This document shows positions 3,590 through 53,955 of a DNA stretch of 64,000 nucleotides, piece after piece. A program made the translations under genes and the position numbers. This DNA is from an uncultured Gammaproteobacteria bacterium (lineage in GTDB: Bacteria; Patescibacteriota; Patescibacteriia; Magasanikbacterales; GWA2-37-8), in the NCBI GenBank assembly GCA_964641245.1, contig CAZXML010000001.1:229460-293459 (forward strand), given 5' to 3'. The notes under the pieces were generated by a model that made no database searches, was not told the DNA's origin, and saw only the letters and a list, made by a program, of their open reading frames with translations. The stretch's first letter is position 1; each line of letters opens with the position of its first letter.

Positions 3590-3751
3590 TTTGTCATTGC
3601 GACCCGTCAAGCGGGGAAGCAATCCTATCCACAGCTCACTCACTCTCTCCCCTACAAGGGGAGAGATAAAGAGAGGGGTTTATCGTTAAAATGTTAGCTT
3701 AACAACAACCAAAACCCCCTCTACTGTTCTCCCCCTTATAGGGGGAGAAAC
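3590..3751. repeat. Composite of repeat-element fragments (family B end, GC-hairpin fragment, two family C GGGGAGAG hairpins).
   Basis: The region contains tgtcattgcgac...gcaatcc and caagcggggaa. It also contains ctctctcccctacaaggggagag...gaggggtttatcg and cccctctactgttctcccccttatagggggagaaacc, which match pieces found at 36272, 32251 and 47041. Confidence 0.6.
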
Positions 3752-12096: not shown

Positions 12097-12164
12097 TGTC
12101 ATGCTGAACTTGTTTCAGCATCTACACACAAGACTAAAGATCCTGAAACAAGTTCAGGATGACA
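12097..12164. repeat. Family A' twin-hairpin element (TGTCATGCTGAA...TTCAGGATGACA).
   Basis: tgtcatgctgaacttgtttcagcatct...agatcctgaaacaagttcaggatgaca. A direct copy lies at 14725-14790 and a third at 34243-34304. Confidence 0.85.
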
Positions 12165-14724: not shown

Positions 14725-14790
14725 GTCATGCTGAACTTGTTTCAGCATCTGCTTAAGAACGAAAGATCCTGAAACAAGTTCAGGATGACA
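14725..14790. repeat. Family A' element, direct copy of 12097-12164.
   Basis: tgtcatgctgaacttgtttcagcatct...agatcctgaaacaagttcaggatgaca. Confidence 0.85.
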
Positions 14791-14796
14791 TTGCGT

Positions 14797-16383
14797 ATGA
14801 GTACGATCTACCGTAAATACCGGCCTCAATTATTTAGTGATATTGTTGGGCAACAGCATATTATAAAAACGGTTATTAACGAAATAACTGCCGGTAAGAT
14901 AGCGCACGCCTATCTTTTTTGCGGTCCCCGCGGAACGGGGAAAACCACTTTGGCCAGATTGCTCGCCAAGTCCATAAATTGCGCAAACAGAAAAGAAAAA
15001 GACAGCGAGCCGTGCGGTACGTGTTCGTCGTGCGCGGAGGTTACAGACGGCCGCAATATAGATGTGATAGAAATAGACGCGGCGTCGCACACGGGCGTAG
15101 AAAATATGCGCGAAAATATTATAGAAAACGCGCAATTTAAACCCACCAAATCAAAATATAAAGTATTTATCATCGACGAAGTGCACATGCTTTCCACCGG
15201 CGCCTTTAACGCGTTACTTAAGACGCTGGAAGAACCGCCCGCCCACGTAATTTTTATTCTGGCCACTACCGAACAACAAAAACTACCGGCCACCATTATT
15301 TCCCGCTGTCAGCGTTTTAATTTCAAAAGAGTCGGCTATGAAGATATGATGAAACGTCTGGGCGAAATTTGTAAAAGTGAAAAAGTAAAAGTAGACAAAG
15401 AAGTTTTGGAACGCGTTATAAATAAAAGCGATGGCTGTATGCGCGACGCCGAAAGTTTGCTAGGGCAAGTATTAAGTTTGGATTTGAAGAGCATTAGCCC
15501 GGAAGACGCGGAAATGATTTTGCCCACCTCCGGCATTCAAACAGTGCTGGAGTTTATAAATTTTATTTTAGAGAAACAAACCGCGGAAGCCATAAAAATG
15601 ATTCAAAATCTGGTTTCAGACGGCGTGAACCTGGAACAATTTGCTTACGATACACTGGAGGCTCTGCGACTTCTTATGATTCTACAGGTTGATCCACAGG
15701 CCAAAAATATCAACACCGATTACAGCGATGAGGCTCTAAAATCACTCAAAAAAACCGGTCTTAAAATTTCCGCCCAACATTTGGTAAAAATGATTGAAGC
15801 GTTAATTATCCGACGTCGGGATATTAAGTCATCGCCAATGCCGCAATTGCCGTTGGAGCTGTTTGTGGTGGAGTTTACGTGCGCTCCTGACCGCCACTTC
15901 GACGACACACCGATTGTCATTCTGACGAAGGAAGAATCTATACCGATAAAAAAAAATAGTATAGATCCCTCGTCGGCTACGGCCTCGCTCGGGATGACAA
16001 ACAATACAATCACCCAAACCATAAAAGACACCATCTCCAACCTTACCCACAAGCAAATTAAAACCACTTTAGAGGACATAAAAGCAAAATGGAATGACGT
16101 TATCCGGGAAATTTCCAAGGAAAACCATTCCCTTAGTTTCATTTTAAAAATGAGCAATCTTTTGGCTGTAGACGATGATGGTCTTAAAATCTCCGTCCCC
16201 TACTCTTTCCACAAAGATAAGCTGGAAGAAAATAAAACCAAAAAAACCATAGAACAGACCCTGACGAACTTTTTTTCGGAACGCATATTTTTACAATGCG
16301 AGGTTGTAGAAAGCCGGGTACAAACAAATAACGATGACGACTTAAATAAATTGGCTGCGGACTTTGGAGGGAATGTTGTATGA
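14797..16383 (+). CDS. dnaX: DNA polymerase III subunit gamma/tau.
   Basis: MSTIYRKYRPQLFSDIVGQQHI is followed by the Walker A GPRGTGKTT, the zinc module CGTCSSC and the DEVHML box. The ATG at 14785 lies within the repeat (ggATGACA), so the second ATG at 14797 is preferred. Confidence 0.9.
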   Translation: MSTIYRKYRPQLFSDIVGQQHIIKTVINEITAGKIAHAYLFCGPRGTGKTTLARLLAKSINCANRKEKDSEPCGTCSSCAEVTDGRNIDVIEIDAASHTGVENMRENIIENAQFKPTKSKYKVFIIDEVHMLSTGAFNALLKTLEEPPAHVIFILATTEQQKLPATIISRCQRFNFKRVGYEDMMKRLGEICKSEKVKVDKEVLERVINKSDGCMRDAESLLGQVLSLDLKSISPEDAEMILPTSGIQTVLEFINFILEKQTAEAIKMIQNLVSDGVNLEQFAYDTLEALRLLMILQVDPQAKNINTDYSDEALKSLKKTGLKISAQHLVKMIEALIIRRRDIKSSPMPQLPLELFVVEFTCAPDRHFDDTPIVILTKEESIPIKKNSIDPSSATASLGMTNNTITQTIKDTISNLTHKQIKTTLEDIKAKWNDVIREISKENHSLSFILKMSNLLAVDDDGLKISVPYSFHKDKLEENKTKKTIEQTLTNFFSERIFLQCEVVESRVQTNNDDDLNKLAADFGGNVV

Positions 16384-17212: not shown

Positions 17213-17283
17213 TCCGAGGTGGTCTAATGGTAGGACAGCAGACTCTGAATCTGCTTATCTTGGTTCGAATCCAAGCCTCGGAA
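17213..17283 (+). tRNA. tRNA-Gln (anticodon CTG).
   Basis: Cloverleaf with acceptor tccgagg/cctcgga, anticodon stem gcaga/tctgc, loop ctCTGaa and T-arm cttgg-ttcgaat-ccaag. No CCA is encoded. Confidence 0.85.
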
Positions 17284-23395: not shown

Positions 23396-23518
23396 ATTAA
23401 GCTTTCTTTCTGCCTCCTCTATATCTTTGGCAATGGTCGCGCCGGTTTCTACCCGCTTTATCGCCTTTAAGTGTTCCTTTATTTTATCCTCTTCAGTACT
23501 GTTTGGAGAAATTTGTTA

Positions 23519-23624
23519 GGAACAGCCACTTAAGCGAGTTGGGATGTGTCATATGCCGGTACTTTACCCTGCTTCAGGAGCTTTACCGAGAAGCGCGGGG
23601 TGTTACCGATGTATCTCATCTTCT
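23519..23624. mobile_element. Solo left-end remnant (~106 bp) of the IS481-family element, inverted relative to the full copy at 36961.
   Basis: Its reverse complement matches 36961-37070 at ~93% identity, including the first 12 codons of the transposase (MTHPNSLKWLFL). No transposase body follows. Confidence 0.75.
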
Positions 23625-23631
23625 GCATTAT

Positions 23632-27328: not shown

Positions 27329-27399
27329 TTCCGAGGCTTGGAATCGAACCAAGATAAACAGCTTCAAAGGCTGCTGTCCTACCTTTAGACGACCTCGGA
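27329..27399 (-). tRNA. tRNA-Gln (anticodon TTG).
   Basis: The reverse complement tccgaggtcgtctaaaggtaggacagcagccttTTGaagctg...ttggttcgattccaagcctcggaa is nearly identical to the CTG isoacceptor at 17213. Confidence 0.85.
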
Positions 27400-32351: not shown

Positions 32352-32569
32352 ATTGACCTCGACCGAACAAATAAATTAAACAAAAAAACTTTCCTTGGCA
32401 GGAAAGAAAGTCGACCTTTATCTTTCCCCGTTGGGGCTAGATTTGGCACCTTATCCCGACTAAGTCGGGACAGGTTGTCGGCAGGTCTTAGGGCTAGTTC
32501 CCTCGCTGCACTCTTGATAACTATATCGTACCAGGTATTTCTTAATTATCAAAAAATACCTGGGGATAA

Positions 32570-32947: not shown

Positions 32948-33018
32948 AGCCCCCTGTCAGAATCGGACTGACGTTTGTGGTTTACGATACCACCGTTCTG
33001 CCACTGAACTAAGGGGGC
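32948..33018 (-). tRNA. tRNA-Thr (anticodon CGT).
   Basis: The reverse complement gcccccttagttcagtggcagaacggtggtatCGTaaaccac...gtcagtccgattctgacagggggct folds as a cloverleaf. The T-loop is atypical (TCCGATT). Confidence 0.7.
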
Positions 33019-33028
33019 ACTCATCTTG

Positions 33029-33099
33029 AGCGGGATACCGGAATCGAACCGGCCTCTCATCCTTGGGAAGGACGTATACTACCGATGTACTAATCCCGC
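33029..33099 (-). tRNA. tRNA-Gly (anticodon CCC).
   Basis: The reverse complement gcgggattagtacatcggtagtatacgtccttCCCaaggatgagaggccggttcgattccggtatcccgct folds as a cloverleaf. Confidence 0.85.
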
Positions 33100-34242: not shown

Positions 34243-34304
34243 TCATAGTTGTCATGCTGAATTTATTTCAGCATCTAATCGGTATAGATCCTGAAACAAG
34301 TTCA
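34243..34304. repeat. Family A' twin-hairpin element.
   Basis: tgtcatgctgaatttatttcagcatct...agatcctgaaacaagttcaggatgac. Confidence 0.8.
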
Positions 34305-34312
34305 GGATGACG

Positions 34313-35472: not shown

Positions 35473-35577
35473 TTGTCATCCTGAACGGAGTGAAGGATCT
35501 CTGTCCGTATAGTTTTCACCAACCAGACAGAGATTCTTCGCTTTGCTCAGAATGACAGTTACGTACGGGATGACAAT
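35473..35577. repeat. Family A TGTCAT-type element plus an extra terminal fragment.
   Basis: ttgtcatcctgaacggagtgaaggatctctgtc...gacagagattcttcgctttgctcagaatgacag, followed by ttacgtacgggatgacaatgc. It supplies the last 6 codons and the stop of the Mur ligase gene. Confidence 0.8.
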
Positions 35578-36896
35578 GCGGATAACACTTCTCTGGCAAC
35601 ACGGCGGTCATCCCAAACAATTTTCTTTCCCCCGGCCACCGCAATATACGGCTCCGTGCCTTTGGCGGTAATAACCACCACGTCTCCGGCTTGAGCCAAG
35701 GAAACGGCTTTAATTATTGCCTGACGACGGTCCACAATCACAAACAAGTCTGCATTGTCTTTTTTTCCGGACGAACGCGCGCCAACCGCCAGCATTTCGG
35801 CAATTTGTTCCGGATCTTCATCGTAACAGTTCACATCTGTAATTATAACATAATCGGTTAATTTACCTGCTATTTGCCCCATAGATTCTCTTTTGCTTTT
35901 GTCGCGACCGCCGCCGTCGGACCCAACCACCGCAATAATTTTGTGGTCATGACCAACCATTTCACGCAAACTTTTAAACAATTCGGTTAAACTTACGGGT
36001 TCGTGCGCATAATCTACTATCACCTTAAAATTTTGTCCTTCATCAATTAATTCCATTCTGCCCTCCACTAATTTTACGCTCGCCAACCCTTCGGCAATTT
36101 TCTCATCGGAAATTTTCTGCGCCCTGCCCACCGCAATCGCAGCCAGCGCGTTGTAAACGTTAAACCGGCCGATTATATTTAATCTGAATTTTTTGCCACC
36201 GACTGTAAAATCAGAACCATTCTGATCGGAAACGATATTTTCTCCGCTTAATAATTTTGTCGCGCTGTTTTTGTCATTGCGAGGAGCTAAAAGCGACGTG
36301 GCAATCCCATTGTTGGCACTACCAGTACTGTGGGATTGCTTCGCTTTGCTCGCAATGACAGAAAACGCCCACTTCTCCACCGCCGGAAAACTCAAAAAAT
36401 AATCCGCATGCTCATCATCCGTATTAGCAACAATTGTTTTTGCTTTCGCAAAAATTTTGGCTTTGTCTTTTTTTAGATTATCAAATCCACCGTGGCGTTC
36501 CGAATGTTCGGTTCCTAAATTAGTAAACACCGCCGTATGGTAATTCAATCCGATATGCCGGTACTGCAAAATTCCTTCCGAAGATGTTTCCACCACCGCG
36601 TATTTGCACCCGGCTTTTACCATTTGTTTTAATAAACTCTGAATTTTCCCTCGCCCTAGCATGGTCATTTTTTTATCGTTCAGCCAGCGCTTATTGGCCA
36701 CCTGAAATTCTACGGTGCTTAGTAGCCCAACTTTATTTCCTCCCGCTTCTAAAACAGACGCAATAAGCCGGCAAGTGGTAGACTTGCCCTTGGTGCCGGT
36801 TACCCCAATCACAGTTAATTTTCGGGCCGGCCGGCCATACCACCAATAAGCGGACCAGGCCAATAAAAAATGAAGGATTTTCTTAAAAAAAGACAT
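35559..36896 (-). CDS. Mur ligase family protein (MurE-like UDP-N-acetylmuramoyl-tripeptide ligase).
   Basis: VIGVTGTKGKSTT (P-loop), DYAHEPVSL and AKGTEPY motifs are present. It carries a ~30-aa in-frame repeat-encoded insertion (SVIASKAKQSHSTGSANNGIATSLLAPRND). Confidence 0.75.
   Translation of the reverse strand: MSFFKKILHFLLAWSAYWWYGRPARKLTVIGVTGTKGKSTTCRLIASVLEAGGNKVGLLSTVEFQVANKRWLNDKKMTMLGRGKIQSLLKQMVKAGCKYAVVETSSEGILQYRHIGLNYHTAVFTNLGTEHSERHGGFDNLKKDKAKIFAKAKTIVANTDDEHADYFLSFPAVEKWAFSVIASKAKQSHSTGSANNGIATSLLAPRNDKNSATKLLSGENIVSDQNGSDFTVGGKKFRLNIIGRFNVYNALAAIAVGRAQKISDEKIAEGLASVKLVEGRMELIDEGQNFKVIVDYAHEPVSLTELFKSLREMVGHDHKIIAVVGSDGGGRDKSKRESMGQIAGKLTDYVIITDVNCYDEDPEQIAEMLAVGARSSGKKDNADLFVIVDRRQAIIKAVSLAQAGDVVVITAKGTEPYIAVAGGKKIVWDDRRVAREVLSALSSRT
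36272..36360. repeat. Family B element (GTCATTGCGAGGAG...GCTCGCAATGACA) lying in-frame inside the Mur ligase gene.
   Basis: tgtcattgcgaggagctaaaagcgacgtggcaatcccattgttggcactaccagtactgtgggattgcttcgctttgctcgcaatgaca. Intergenic copies lie at 52370 and 53868. Confidence 0.85.
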
Positions 36897-36960
36897 AAAA
36901 TTTATGGCTGATACCTAAAAATTATACCAAAAAAATGGCAAAATGACAAGCTGCATTATG

Positions 36961-38130
36961 TAGAAGATGAGATACATCGGTAACACTCCACGCTTCTCGG
37001 CAAAGCTCCTGAAGCAGGGTAAAGTACCGACATATGACACATCCCAACTCTCTTAAATGGCTGTTCCTGACCAAGGAAAAGCTACCACAGGTTTTTTTCA
37101 GAGACAACCAAAAGAAATTGCTTGCCCATCATGATCGTTGGCGGCGAACCGCAGGCCTCCTTAAATTATCCAAGGGCGCGAAGAGCCGCCTCGAGTGGAT
37201 GATATTTTATGAAACGAAAGGTGAGCGGAATGCTCGTTTAACTGCCAGGCATTTCGGCATCGTTCCCAAGACTTTTTATCAATGGCATAATCGCTTTGAT
37301 GAAGGCGACCTTAAAACGCTCGAAGAGCGTTCACGCGCGCCCGTTAGCAAACGGGTGCGGGAGTACACACCCCTCCAGTATGTCCGGGTAATTAAACTTC
37401 GCAAGGAACATATCCGGTGGGGCAAGATGAAGCTTTTAAAACTGTATCAAGATGACTTTCCAAAAGATGCAACAATTACCAGTTGGAAGGTTCAATGTAT
37501 TATTGAAGTATCCGGCATCTACTACCACCCTCAAAAACAAGCTAGAATCAACCGCAAACGCATATTGTCGGTGAAGCGGAAGAAGATTACTGACCTCGCC
37601 AAAAAACCACGGCAGGGTTTTTTGGTATGTCTCGACACAATCGTGCGTTATGTTGCCGGACAGAAGCGCTACATTTTGACGGCGATTGACCAATACTCAA
37701 AAATTACCTTTGGCCGAATGTACACGACACATAGCTCGGCAAACGCGAGGGACTTTCTTCACCGCCTCCACTATCTGCTTGACGGAAAGATTGAAAACAT
37801 TCAAACTGACAACGGCAGTGAATTCAAATTGCATTTTGATACGGCCTTAACGAAGTTGAATATTCCACACTACCATTCTCGGGTAAGGACACCAAAAGAT
37901 AACGCGGTGAACGAACGGTTCAATCGTACCCTAGATGAAGAATTCCTGGCTATGGGCAATCTGATGGCAGATACCGTTCTTTTTAACCAACGTCTGACTG
38001 AGTGGCTGGTAGAATACAACTTCAAACGTCCGCATCAATCTCTGGGGTATCTACCACCAATTAACTTTCATTTTAAATATCATAAAGTGTTACCGATGTA
38101 CCCGTCTAGTACAACTGATTGACACATCGC
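36961..38130 (+). mobile_element. IS481-family insertion sequence (single transposase ORF).
   Basis: Transposase 37034-38122 (362 aa) has an N-terminal HTH and an rve/DDE core (DNGSEF...RPHQSLGY). An imperfect terminal repeat core TACATCGGTAACACT lies at both ends. The left end is defined by comparison with the remnant at 23519-23624. The right boundary is approximate. Confidence 0.8.
37034..38122 (+). CDS. IS481-family DDE transposase.
   Basis: HTH, integrase core D...D...E region, DNGSEFK and KRPHQSLGYLPP are present. Confidence 0.85.
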   Translation: MTHPNSLKWLFLTKEKLPQVFFRDNQKKLLAHHDRWRRTAGLLKLSKGAKSRLEWMIFYETKGERNARLTARHFGIVPKTFYQWHNRFDEGDLKTLEERSRAPVSKRVREYTPLQYVRVIKLRKEHIRWGKMKLLKLYQDDFPKDATITSWKVQCIIEVSGIYYHPQKQARINRKRILSVKRKKITDLAKKPRQGFLVCLDTIVRYVAGQKRYILTAIDQYSKITFGRMYTTHSSANARDFLHRLHYLLDGKIENIQTDNGSEFKLHFDTALTKLNIPHYHSRVRTPKDNAVNERFNRTLDEEFLAMGNLMADTVLFNQRLTEWLVEYNFKRPHQSLGYLPPINFHFKYHKVLPMYPSSTTD

Positions 38131-38147
38131 GCCAATTATGATACACT
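38119..38147 (+). promoter_or_regulatory. Candidate outward-reading promoter created by the IS right end.
   Basis: TTGACA (38119-38124, overlapping the transposase stop), a 17-nt spacer, then TACACT. An aggaaggg RBS precedes the ATG at 38180. Confidence 0.3.
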
Positions 38148-38179
38148 CATCACAGATACAAACAGAAAGGAAGGGTCGC

Positions 38180-38662
38180 ATGAAACGATGTACATCCTGC
38201 GGAAAGTCCGATTTACGTTTGGGTACAGTGTCTCACCACCTATCGGTCGGTGGGTATAAATTTAGCGGGCGAATGCCTGGCGAAATCTGTGATACATGTG
38301 GCAGAGAGACTGTGGAAGCTAAGTATTTGGTGACATTCGAGCTGGTGGTGGCTGGACTATTCGCTGAATCGGGACTAACCTCAACACCTGAAGCGTTCCA
38401 TTTCATGCGCCATTCGCTAGGTATGACGGCTGTTGAAATGGCAAGCCTGTTCGGAGTGACGCCCGAAACAGTTTCCCGATGGGAAAATGGAAAACTCCCA
38501 ATCGAAACGCGGTCCCTCGCGCTACTTGGTTGCATGGTCATGGATGCGGTTAATCGACGCAAGAATACCATGAATTTGCTCCACGCAGTTCGTTCGCCCA
38601 CGAATATGAAGGGGATAGTACTGGTGCTTGATGGAGTCAATGTCTGGGCTGACGTGCCCTAA
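38180..38662 (+). CDS. MqsA-like protein (N-terminal CxxC...CxxC zinc ribbon plus XRE-type HTH).
   Basis: MKRCTSCGKSDLRLG...GEICDTCGRETV zinc ribbon, then MTAVEMASLFGVTPETVSRWENGK HTH. No MqsR-like toxin is adjacent. Confidence 0.55.
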   Translation: MKRCTSCGKSDLRLGTVSHHLSVGGYKFSGRMPGEICDTCGRETVEAKYLVTFELVVAGLFAESGLTSTPEAFHFMRHSLGMTAVEMASLFGVTPETVSRWENGKLPIETRSLALLGCMVMDAVNRRKNTMNLLHAVRSPTNMKGIVLVLDGVNVWADVP

Positions 38663-44148: not shown

Positions 44149-44859
44149 TTATTTAACGGCTATGGCGATAAGATTCCGTCCGCCTTTTTTATCTGTCCAG
44201 TTTGTTCTCTCGCTGTAGTCAATTTTTTTTATTTTGAATCCGGCTTCTGTTAATAACCCGCTTAATTCTTCTTTGGGAAAATGATGATAATATCTTTCGG
44301 CTAATTGCTCGCCTTCAGGAGTTTTCCAGGGAACCAGAAAATCATTTTCTCCGATTTGCTTCCAACTTTTGTCTATTTTACTTTTTGCCCAATCGCTTTC
44401 CAGATTCCAAACCGTAATAATTAATTTTCCGGACGGTTTTAATTGTTTATAAACATCTTTTAATAATTCCAAACGGCTTTGTTTGTCCGGCAAATGATGA
44501 AACGAAGCAATCATGAAAACCAGATCAAAAAAATCTTTTGAGAAGCTCTTTTTTTTCTTGGCGGTGGAAAAAAATTTTATCCAACCTTCTTTTATTTCTT
44601 TTTGGTAATTTTTTTTCGCGATTTTTAATAATTCATCGCTTTGGTCCGTGCCAATATAATTCACCCGCTTCTCTTTTAACAATAAAACCAACCGGCCGTT
44701 TCCACAGCCCCAATCCAAAATATTCTGCCCGTTTTTTATAAACGGTTTAAACATTTCCAGCTCGCCGGCGTTATTTCTGGTGCTGTCAAAATACCTGGCT
44801 ATACGGTTGTAATCTTCGCGGGTTTTGTGTATAATCTTAGTTGTATCTTTTCTTAACAT
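44149..44859 (-). CDS. Class I SAM-dependent methyltransferase.
   Basis: Motif I ILDWGCGNGRLV in a Rossmann layout. Confidence 0.7.
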   Translation of the reverse strand: MLRKDTTKIIHKTREDYNRIARYFDSTRNNAGELEMFKPFIKNGQNILDWGCGNGRLVLLLKEKRVNYIGTDQSDELLKIAKKNYQKEIKEGWIKFFSTAKKKKSFSKDFFDLVFMIASFHHLPDKQSRLELLKDVYKQLKPSGKLIITVWNLESDWAKSKIDKSWKQIGENDFLVPWKTPEGEQLAERYYHHFPKEELSGLLTEAGFKIKKIDYSERTNWTDKKGGRNLIAIAVK

Positions 44860-46628
44860 GTATGTCTGTTACAGAGGAAATGATTAAATATCTGCTGGCC
44901 AATCCCCCCAAAACGGAGGATGCTTTTGGCGTGGTTTTAAGAAAAATTTTGCGTCAGACCAAAAACGCGCAGGCCAACATTCCCACCAAATCGTCGCTGA
45001 TTAAATCATATCATAAATTGTTAAAACAGCACAAGATTAAAAAGAGTCCGGCGCTGGAAAAAACCTTAATGAAGCGGGCGGTGCGCACTTTGTCCGGCGT
45101 CAGCATTATTACCGTGCTCACCAAACCATTCCCCTGTCCCGGAAAGTGCATTTATTGCCCCACCGAAGCGCGCATGCCTAAAAGTTACATTTCCGATGAA
45201 CCGGCCGCGGCGCGCGCCTTAAGTTTGGCGTTTGATCCTTACCAACAGGTTGTTCAACGCTTTAAGGCTTTAGAAAATAACGGCCACCCCACCGATAAAG
45301 TGGAGTTGATTATTAAGGGTGGAACATGGAATTCGTATCCGATTAAATACCAATACTGGTTTGTTGCCAGATGTTTTGAAGCGTGCAATAATGTAAAATT
45401 TAATGCAGCCAAGCCAAGGGGCGCGCGTTCGGCAGTAGACGAGAAATTTTCTTTGGATAAATTGCGCCAATTGAGTTTCAAAATTCAAAAAGCAAATGAA
45501 AACGGCAAACACCGCCTGATTGGTTTAACCATAGAAACCCGCCCCGATTTTATAAACGCCGGCACTATCGCGGCTATGCGGGAAATGGGTACCACCAGAA
45601 TAGAACTAGGCGTACAAAATACCAATGAAAAAATATTAAAATTAACAAAACGCGGCCATGGCACGGCCGAAGTAAAACGCGCCACCAAAATGCTAAAAGA
45701 TTACGGTTTTAAAGTTGACTACCATTTAATGCCCCAATTGCCCGGAGCGACTCCGGCGACGGATTTAAAAATGATGTTAAAAGTTTTTGACGACCCGGAT
45801 TACCGTCCGGATATGATTAAGGTGTATCCGTGCACGGTGGTGAAAACTTCCGAACTTTACGACTGGCTAAAACGGGGTGAATACAAAACGTATTCAGACC
45901 GCCATTTGATAAACATGCTGAAAAAATTTAAAGTAAAAGTTCCGCGCTACGTGCGCATTTCCCGGTTAATCCGCGATATTCCCGGTCATCATATTCAAGC
46001 CGGAAATAAAATGACAAACTTGCGCCAGGTAATCCAGGAGGAGTTAAAAAAAGAAGGATTAAAATGCAGTTGTCTGCGCTGTCGCGAGGTCGGACATCAA
46101 CACATCGAGTCAAATGTCAAAAGTCAAAAGTCAAAAGTCAAAATGTTTGTAGACAAATACGAAGCCAACGGCGGGACGGAATATTTCTTAAGTTTCGAAG
46201 ATACCAAACGCGACGTTGTTTACGCGTTTTGCCGATTGCGTGTTCTCAAGCCTGTCATCCTGAGCAAAGCGAAGGATCTCTCTCTTTCAAACAAAAGGGA
46301 TTCTTCGGTCACTTCACTCCCTCAGAATGACAACCACAACCTCCCCAACGAAGGAATTAGCGCGGCCGAATTAGTCAAAATGGGCTACCCCGCTTTTATC
46401 CGCGAACTCCATACTTACGGCCAACTTATAAACATTGGGAAAAAAGCCAAAGGGGCTAGCCAGCATATTGGCATGGGCACAAAATTAATTGTTGAAGCGG
46501 AAAAAATCTGTAGAAAAAACAAGGCCTACAAATTAGCCGTAATTTCCGGAGTGGGTGTACGCGAATATTACAAAAAATTTGGCTACAAACTGGAAAACAC
46601 CTATATGGTAAAGACTTTGAAAAAGTAG
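44841..46628 (+). CDS. elp3: Elp3-family radical-SAM/GNAT protein (tRNA uridine-34 modification homologue).
   Basis: CPGKCIYCP radical-SAM cluster motif, LIGLTIETRPDF, and a C-terminal GNAT region (HIGMGTKLIVEAEKIC). A start at 44862 (MSVTEEM) is also possible. It carries two in-frame repeat insertions. Confidence 0.8.
   Translation: MYLFLTCMSVTEEMIKYLLANPPKTEDAFGVVLRKILRQTKNAQANIPTKSSLIKSYHKLLKQHKIKKSPALEKTLMKRAVRTLSGVSIITVLTKPFPCPGKCIYCPTEARMPKSYISDEPAAARALSLAFDPYQQVVQRFKALENNGHPTDKVELIIKGGTWNSYPIKYQYWFVARCFEACNNVKFNAAKPRGARSAVDEKFSLDKLRQLSFKIQKANENGKHRLIGLTIETRPDFINAGTIAAMREMGTTRIELGVQNTNEKILKLTKRGHGTAEVKRATKMLKDYGFKVDYHLMPQLPGATPATDLKMMLKVFDDPDYRPDMIKVYPCTVVKTSELYDWLKRGEYKTYSDRHLINMLKKFKVKVPRYVRISRLIRDIPGHHIQAGNKMTNLRQVIQEELKKEGLKCSCLRCREVGHQHIESNVKSQKSKVKMFVDKYEANGGTEYFLSFEDTKRDVVYAFCRLRVLKPVILSKAKDLSLSNKRDSSVTSLPQNDNHNLPNEGISAAELVKMGYPAFIRELHTYGQLINIGKKAKGASQHIGMGTKLIVEAEKICRKNKAYKLAVISGVGVREYYKKFGYKLENTYMVKTLKK
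46109..46143 (+). repeat. Tandem heptanucleotide repeat (GTCAAAT then GTCAAAA x4) inside the elp3 coding sequence.
   Basis: gtcaaat gtcaaaa gtcaaaa gtcaaaa gtcaaaa, encoding SNVKSQKSKVK. Confidence 0.85.
46264..46332. repeat. Family A TGTCAT-type element inserted in-frame in elp3.
   Basis: tgtcatcctgagcaaagcgaaggatctctctc...ccctcagaatgacaa, encoding VILSKAKDLSLSNKRDSSVTSLPQND. Confidence 0.8.
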
Positions 46629-52369: not shown

Positions 52370-52456
52370 TGTCATTGCGAGGAGTCGTAGCGACGTGGCA
52401 ATCCCATAGTCAGTACTACTAGTATAGTGGGATTGCTTCGCTTTGCTCGCAATGAC
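52370..52456. repeat. Family B element (intergenic, ftsA-ftsZ).
   Basis: tgtcattgcgaggagtcgtagcgacgtggcaatcccatagtcagtactactagtatagtgggattgcttcgctttgctcgcaatgaca. Confidence 0.85.
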
Positions 52457-52586
52457 AGATAAAGTTCCATTGAACACATTTTGTATTCAGCATCCTCTTA
52501 AACAAAACAACGGAGTGGTCTCCGTTGTATAGTTTATAGATAATAGTTTTTACTGTCAAGAAAACAAGTGCACTCTTTGTGTACAA

Positions 52587-53844: not shown

Positions 53845-53955
53845 TGTCATGCCTAGCGAGGTCTTACTGTCATTGCGAGGAGCCGGAGCGACGCGGCAAT
53901 CCCACTGTCGGGACTACCAGTACTTTGGGTTTGCTTCGCTTTGCTCGCAATGACA
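53845..53955. repeat. Family B element with an extra partial TGTCAT end.
   Basis: tgtcatgcctagcgag is followed by tgtcattgcgaggagccggagcgacgcggcaatcccactgtcgggactaccagtactttgggtttgcttcgctttgctcgcaatgaca. Confidence 0.85.

Follow-up and report, generated by a model that had tools for sequence, protein, structure and literature searches.

That palindromic repeats may settle in-frame in housekeeping genes has so far been regarded as essentially a peculiarity of Rickettsia. The Rickettsia palindromic elements (RPEs) are short, palindromic, multi-copy sequences of about 100-150 bp (Ogata et al. 2000 Science 290:347; Ogata et al. 2002 Genome Res 12:808; PMC10969869), of which a sizeable fraction lies in-frame in unrelated housekeeping genes, with other copies located between genes (PMC10969869). 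Intragenic in-frame copies are also described for bacterial MITEs (miniature transposable elements with inverted repeats), i.e., ERIC, BOX, Correia, and QMITE1 (PMC10969869), while repetitive extragenic palindromic (REP) sequences and the hairpin-forming REP doublets (REPINs) are mobilised by REP-associated tyrosine transposases (RAYTs; Bertels & Rainey 2011, PMC3116915; PMC3337134). Herein, we describe an 89-nt palindromic element, assigned to a repeat family denoted family B, that is located inside a MurE-like Mur ligase gene on a 64,000-nt stretch of contig CAZXML010000001.1 (positions 229,460 to 293,459; hereafter the window), from a Patescibacteria genome of the Candidate Phyla Radiation (CPR). 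With a probability of roughly 80%, we consider the element to be a tolerated in-frame passenger at a site that has been occupied repeatedly. As three genes within these 64 kb of a small, streamlined CPR genome carry such elements, the phenomenon would be broader than Rickettsia.

Like RPEs, the window element is short, palindromic, and multi-copy, has no transposase of its own, would add an in-frame extra peptide at a position compatible with the protein fold, and has intergenic copies too. It differs in its Patescibacteria/CPR host and in size, the elements in the window measuring about 65-106 nt and thus being shorter than RPEs. Moreover, the family-B termini and inner box are common to many phyla, whereas RPEs have been described as a Rickettsia feature, and in contrast to RPEs, a single codon boundary is here filled by several families among orthologues. 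The original prediction had proposed RPE-like behaviour, and this is supported as a class of behaviour: a multi-copy repeat forming a stable hairpin lies stop-free in a functional open reading frame (ORF) under purifying selection, is absent from the nearest orthologues, and maps (in a structural model) to a loop. The term "RPE-like" thus refers to behaviour only; no membership in the Rickettsia families RPE-1 to RPE-10 is claimed, nor is it expected, because the phylum is a different one and the termini have relatives across phyla.

Two inverted arms that form a long hairpin, a palindromic structure of each arm in some families, a high copy density, the lack of target-site duplications, and the occurrence of single or clustered termini (including a solo terminus at 35566-35577) are all features in common with REPs and REPINs. 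However, REPINs are extragenic by definition and largely lineage-specific, whereas three of the window's complete copies sit within ORFs and the termini of these elements recur in other phyla. REPs carry a conserved GTAG tetranucleotide, which is not seen in the window elements. Small size, terminal inverted repeats, a non-coding nature, multiple copies, and occasional in-frame fusions to ORFs are reminiscent of MITEs, from which the present elements differ in having neither a target-site duplication nor an insertion sequence (IS) with matching ends that could be found. The architecture is most like that of REP/REPIN sequences and the in-gene behaviour is that of RPEs, with membership in neither group established.

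A stop-free palindromic repeat in a MurE-like gene

The in-gene element occupies 36272-36360 (core 36273-36359), reads TGTCATTGCGAGGAGC...GCTCGCAATGACA on the plus strand, and lies wholly within a 445-aa ORF encoded on the minus strand, as the original prediction had stated. Its core (GTCAT...ATGAC) measures 87 nt, i.e., 29 codons without a stop, so that the reading frame is kept as had also been proposed. In the register GTC ATT ... AAT GAC, the minus strand encodes VIASKAKQSHSTGSANNGIATSLLAPRND (residues 180-208; tryptic peptide QSHSTGSANNGIATSLLAPR), with the codons TTT TCT immediately before the element and AAA AAC immediately after it. This segment is a genuine repeat: with up to 3 mismatches tolerated, its 16-mer terminus is present 6 times versus 0.39 expected, a count that was reached in 0 of 100 shuffles, and the element folds as a single long hairpin (-48.8 kcal/mol; z = -6.45). 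Full-length family-B copies number three in the window, the other two being intergenic, between ftsZ and ftsA (52370-52457) and in the gap that separates the start of ftsA from the following gene (53868-53955). The core is 86 nt long in both of these and in a third intergenic copy at the related locus L001; the two in-gene copies (window and L001) have one extra base in common in the right arm, bringing the core to 87 nt.

Family-B copies are mutually 85-92% identical, within as well as between genomes, and the intergenic copies are as conserved as those in genes; at synonymous positions of the host genes, divergence approaches saturation (proportion of differences, pS, 0.68 and corrected distance, dS, 1.8 for window versus L001). 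Because the intergenic copies are equally conserved, constraint or recent spread would act on the element as DNA rather than on its peptide. At gathering thresholds, no Rfam family covers the element, and a permissive local scan yields nothing on it beyond chance-level matches (E >= 0.7). An exhaustive HMMER search of global protein collections with the element peptide, which is too short a query, gave 0 matches. In the literature, no paper was found that describes the terminus sequences or the peptides that typically result from their mis-annotation (matches being primers and unrelated words), and nothing relevant was found on palindromic elements or MITEs in CPR/Patescibacteria.

The host gene (35559-36896, minus strand) was characterised via the ORF list, Pfam, PDB sequence searches, Foldseek, and the ratio of nonsynonymous to synonymous divergence (dN/dS). 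It comprises an uninterrupted frame of 1338 nt, the translation of which includes SVIASKAKQSHSTGSANNGIATSLLAPRND, with the Pfam domains Mur_ligase_M at residues 32-256 and Mur_ligase_C at residues 279-413. The top PDB sequence match is MurE (2wtz, 6.7e-53), and the top Foldseek match of the AlphaFold2 model is likewise MurE (8g6p, E 3e-31, template-modelling [TM] score 0.78), with 1e8c at TM 0.80 and a range of 0.76-0.80 across solved MurE structures. The N-terminal UDP-binding domain of MurE is missing, with PDB alignments beginning at chain residues ~95-135, and residues 1-27 form a hydrophobic helix. At the specificity-motif position, where MurE of the E. coli (diaminopimelate) type carries DNPR, alignment yields TDVNCYDEDP (residues 352-361) and no DNPR-type motif. 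Because of the missing domain and the divergent motif, we refer to the gene as MurE-like; the substrate of this ligase may differ from that of canonical MurE.

Homologues that carry taxon names belong to Parcubacteria/Patescibacteria and Magasanikbacteria, and relatives keep the gene order Translin, murE-like, a 206-aa protein, DivIC, and a SurA-like protein. Outside the loop, pairwise comparison with orthologues gives a dN/dS of 0.07-0.09 (dS 0.9-1.8), for alleles with ("filled") and without ("empty") an element alike, and every Mur-ligase block that is invariant across the aligned homologues is kept in the window protein. The host gene is thus, by these sequence measures, functional and under strong purifying selection. 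The intact ORF, the preserved invariant blocks, the low dN/dS, and the fit of the model to MurE structures all argue that the gene is not the pseudogene that the original prediction had allowed for; the same protein sequence is found in both NCBI and JGI records.

A second element, at 35473-35577, had also been proposed to supply the last codons and the stop of the same gene, and this holds in part. Reading of the sequence reveals an isolated (solo) terminus of an element (35566-35577, minus strand; coding-strand sequence TTGTCATCCCG) that encodes the L-S-S-R of the C-terminal tail ...ALSSRT, so that terminus-derived codons are present at the gene end. However, the proposed element consists of two pieces: a complete family-A element (TTGTCATCCTGA...CTCAGAATGACA; 35473-35558) is found directly downstream of the gene, lying outside the ORF because it ends just before the TAA stop codon at 35559-35561, and the Thr codon and stop that sit between the solo terminus and the family-A element belong to neither. 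The tails of several orthologues are likewise terminus-derived (LSLRV followed by a stop; LSSRARP), and the gene at L001 ends within a complete element (2810-2897).

Several repeat families at one loop

Orthologue comparison, a check set beforehand, drew on 30 aligned homologues and on 120 surveyed ones. It maps the insert to a loop of variable length that spans 5-22 aa in element-free homologues, with the exception of a 29-aa (P0054) and a 31-aa (P0070) loop, which may or may not be element-derived. At this position, the nearest relatives, among them P0004, P0005, P0006, and P0008-P0013, carry 11 aa of unrelated loop sequence (GLN.QN.PNIL). At the DNA level, alleles are empty at loci L002, L005, and L193, the last of which (P0014) provides a direct counterpart in which TTC AGC is joined to AAA AAT (F-S to K-N), with no element termini in its 10.9 kb. 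The segment is hence not carried by all orthologues; its presence in all of them would have spoken against an insertion.

Structure prediction with the insert (window protein) and without it (empty orthologue P0004), which had also been suggested, agrees with this placement. The AlphaFold2 model of the MurE-like protein has a mean predicted local distance difference test (pLDDT) score of 79.5, in which the insert appears as a connector with pLDDT<50 (residues 183-210) between the strand at 174-179 and a three-stranded sheet at 213-239 (the next strand being 213-224). In the P0004 model, the corresponding strands (174-179 and 188-196) are connected by a confident 8-residue turn. As modelled, the insert is thus an enlargement of a natural turn with the fold unchanged, and it is probably a disordered surface loop of 29 residues.

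An element is present at exactly this codon boundary in 6 of the 120 homologues, which belong to two subclades and carry at least four families. Whereas the window allele holds the 87-nt family-B core, that of L001 (P0003) holds family B with a nested 42-nt palindrome (129 nt, 87+42), those of L003 (P0002) and L004 (P0007) hold family C (GTCATTCCGACC...CTCGGGATGAC at L003) at 75 and 93 nt, respectively, and in the second subclade, those of L194 (P0031) and P0033 hold a further family of 84 nt and another one known from protein sequence only (24 aa). All five filled alleles for which DNA is available have a site length that is a multiple of 3 and free of stops, and the different families give rise to unrelated peptides. 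These filled alleles, four besides that of the window with an element at the same codon, come from several independent assemblies, which argues against an assembly artefact. Alleles at this single codon range from empty ones to those filled by family B, family C, or a further family, and this orthologous series represents a natural experiment on insertion tolerance and element movement. The nested palindrome of P0003 (L001 2027-2068; TCCCGATTCTCGAGAATCGAGGATCCTCGACTGCGGTCGGGA) is itself in-frame (14 codons) in the right arm of the family-B element, and resembles the variable side hairpins of copies from other phyla.

Element, flank, and gene display different relationships. Between the window and L001, the elements are 91-93% identical and the genes 76.5%; judged by the element, the window allele pairs with L001 (and L003 with L004), whereas its 3' flank pairs with that of L003 (25/26 nt identical), and the filled alleles of subclade 1 have the residues K-N after the element in common. 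Outside a patch of approximately codons 175-255, the window gene is nearest to the empty allele of L002/P0004 (0.80-0.93 nt identity); inside this patch, it is nearest to L001 and L003. In bootstrapped neighbour-joining (NJ) trees built without the patch, the query (window allele) joins P0004 in 150 of 200 replicates; no replicate (0 of 200) unites the four filled alleles of subclade 1 as a clade. Since the families at the boundary differ and the history of the loop patch is discordant, the site would have been colonised or overwritten more than once by different families, and/or the filled loop would have been exchanged by homologous recombination.

Further sporadic inserts are present elsewhere in the MurE-like homologues (alignment columns ~290-305 and ~357-367, and C-termini), and these may be repeat-derived. 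P0020 and P0031 both contain a GPDFATASTGK / GPDSARASTGK insert, P0021 contains DPSTRAAGAAQYGAS, and the C-terminal tails of P0032 and P0043 end in ...GSSDSMGWQG and ...SGDTVRWQG, respectively.

Weighing the explanations

In the explanation that we favour, a non-autonomous hairpin repeat with the termini TGTCAT...ATGACA, resembling in its architecture an inverted doublet of REP-like arms and abundant in this Patescibacteria lineage, would have landed in an essential-type Mur ligase gene. Insertion would have taken place at the codon boundary with which a naturally variable turn begins, between two β-strands of the central domain. Owing to a length divisible by 3 and the lack of a stop in register, the element would be translated as a 29-residue surface loop, the enzyme would stay functional, and the insert would persist as a tolerated passenger, as RPEs do in Rickettsia. 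Mobilisation was probably HUH/RAYT-like, or via another mechanism that leaves no target-site duplication. For the annotation of CPR genomes, such insertions should not be taken as lineage-specific protein features or as pseudogenisation.

Descent of all filled alleles from one ancient insertion, followed by divergence in situ and numerous precise losses, would account for the identical codon boundary, for the K-N residues that follow the element in subclade 1, and for the 3' flank that the window and L003 have almost entirely in common; we regard it as unlikely, given that the families differ by coordinated changes in both arms, that family B is multi-copy elsewhere, that groupings by element similarity conflict with that by flank similarity, that the filled alleles were never recovered as monophyletic, and that divergence among the element copies is far below that at synonymous sites of the gene. 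It is quite improbable, too, that the insert is an exapted protein module under selection, e.g., as an interaction surface or for regulation. Occupation of the same loop in at least six homologues across two subclades could be read in this manner, as could the higher identity of the element than of the gene between the window and L001, but the equal conservation of intergenic copies assigns this conservation to the DNA element and not to the peptide, different families contribute unrelated peptides, the nearest relatives do without the insert, and the segment is modelled as disordered.

The stability of the RNA hairpin (-48.8 kcal/mol) and the conserved termini, which could be recognised by a factor, might instead suggest that the insert is never translated, i.e., that it is removed by RNA processing or skipped through translational bypassing to yield a mature protein like that of the empty allele. 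This is very unlikely, as divisibility by 3 and freedom from stops in five of five filled alleles with DNA would be needless if the segment were removed, the +1-nt change common to both in-gene family-B copies restores divisibility by 3, and the element has no match to a known RNA family in Rfam. Least credible of all is a decaying pseudogene or assembly chimera that is in-frame by luck, a reading already largely refuted; although an IS with an rve transposase immediately precedes the gene on its upstream side and assemblers are known to be misled by repeats, the ORF of 1338 nt is uninterrupted with a dN/dS of 0.07-0.09 and retains the invariant Mur-ligase residues, and both the agreement of the NCBI and JGI records and the filled alleles in four other independent assemblies speak against it.

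Several points nonetheless weigh against the tolerated-passenger explanation. Translation of the 29-residue insert, as opposed to its removal or bypass, is argued from the +1-nt change of the in-gene family-B copies and from the 3n length of all filled alleles, and the in-frame state of the latter is partly a matter of ascertainment, since only full-length predicted proteins were retrieved and frameshifted alleles would be missed. The trees are NJ only, and because groupings beyond that of the query with P0004 (75%) are poorly resolved, independent gains at the site cannot be counted. Furthermore, "MurE" is a family-level assignment, given the missing N-terminal domain and DVNCYDEDP in place of DNPR. 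Finally, as the window and the cross-phylum neighbourhoods revealed no transposase, no duplicated target site, and no autonomous partner, mobility is deduced from copy number and presence/absence only.

Relatives across phyla and other features of the window

Complete elements with identical 12-nt termini were detected in at least 119 stretches (one genome per species, Genome Taxonomy Database; loci L074-L192), with the matches listed including Bacteroidota, Chloroflexota, Cyanobacteria, Planctomycetota, Desulfobacterota, Proteobacteria, Verrucomicrobiota, Omnitrophota, Nitrospirota, Firmicutes, and Patescibacteria. These elements of 74-104 nt have the termini TGTCATTGCGAG/CTCGCAATGACA and a GCAATC/GATTGC box; among the matches listed, the complete inner box (G-NN-GCAATC ... 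GATTGC-NN-C) is found in 110 of 125 copies, with variable side hairpins. Covariation in the inner stem is mixed (present in the 3-nt extension, 63 observed versus 32.6 expected; absent in the AA/TG/CG dinucleotide, 63 versus 59.4) and does not separate RNA/DNA pairing from a protein-binding constraint. Nearly all copies in other phyla are intergenic, with 9 of the 125 listed lying in long open frames, among which only that of L174 looks genuine. There (3623-3715), a family-B-type element is in-frame (MSLRGSETTEAISQDKEDKEIATHPSGARNDI), in a register different from that of the murE case, within a signalling protein of >700 aa that by eye contains PAS/GAF/HD-GYP domains. L095, a candidate for an in-gene element in a different phylum, was rejected as a spurious GC-rich ORF. 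Solo and tandemly clustered termini also occur in other genomes (L120, L185, L190, and L145).

Signs of a mobilising system were sought around these copies. No target-site duplication was detected, with 91 of 128 copies having 0 nt of flanking direct repeat and repeats of 1-2 nt occurring at about the chance rate. Among the matches listed, no protein family is enriched beside the 119 cross-phylum copies, where only generic ABC ATPases and short-chain dehydrogenases/reductases emerged, and no gene-carrying long versions of the element were found in the cross-phylum loci. No RAYT gene was found beside the cross-phylum copies listed (the window ORFs having been scanned only in part and the full window genome not searched), and within the window there is no parent IS with the same ends, the sole IS seen having unrelated ones.

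A metagenome scan for related murE loci yielded mostly distant relatives (40-45% identity). Across ~690 kb around murE loci, complete elements were found only at the close relatives L001 and L003, with none around more distant CPR loci; expansions would therefore be patchy and lineage-restricted. We raise, as a tentative proposal with more doubt than confidence, that family B and its relatives form an undescribed pan-bacterial REP/REPIN-like hairpin superfamily, sharing in >10 phyla TGTCATTGCGAG at the termini and an GAAGCAATC / GATTGCTTC box further in, which would have entered ORFs in the CPR lineage and undergone cassette-like exchange of families at the same codon through a site- or structure-specific mechanism without target-site duplication. 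The conservation of the termini across phyla points to an uncharacterised recognition system.

Within the window itself, a termini-based inventory (pattern GTCAT[TCG][CG][CT]GA ... TC[AG][CG][CGA]ATGAC) returned at least 14 (about 15) complete superfamily elements, with perfect terminal inverted repeats of 11-12 nt. Three of these are inside ORFs with Pfam domains on both sides, namely the MurE-like gene, dnaX, and an ELP3-like gene, the latter two cases being based on the window sequence and Pfam. In dnaX (14785-16383, plus strand), a related element at 15916-15998 (plus strand) falls in the linker that connects domain III to the C-terminal domain and reads in-frame as VILTKEESIPIKKNSIDPSSATASLGMT (VILTKEESIP...SLGMT). 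In the ELP3-like radical-SAM gene (44841-46628, plus strand), a related 78-nt element at 46254-46331 (plus strand) reads in-frame as VILSKAKDLSLSNKRDSSVTSLPQND (VILSKAKDLS...LPQND). Other elements adjoin or overlap gene ends. A short family (61-66 nt; 12098-12163, 14725-14789, and 34251-34311) has arms that each form a near-perfect hairpin, namely ATGCTGAAC..GTTTCAGCAT (12098-12163) and ATCCTGAAAC..GTTCAGGAT; within the superfamily, the double-hairpin (REP-doublet-like) form is clearest here.

Between the Translin gene and the murE-like gene, which are directly adjacent at orthologous loci (Translin upstream), the window contains an IS481/IS3-like insertion at ~36958-38110 (rve transposase, 37034-38122) and a helix-turn-helix gene (38138-38662). 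The inverted repeats of this IS are perfect over 15 bp (TACATCGGTAACACT at 36973 and 38086), and a 117-nt piece of its end recurs in inverted orientation at 23512-23628. The IS was considered as an autonomous partner of the palindromic elements and rejected, its TACATCGGTAACACT repeats being unrelated to the element ends. Rfam further identifies a SAM-I riboswitch (32415-32523, minus strand) and four tRNA genes (17213-17283, 27329-27399, and 32948-33099) in the window, with the tRNAs at 17213 and 27329 being inverted near-duplicates (74 nt, 91% complementary).

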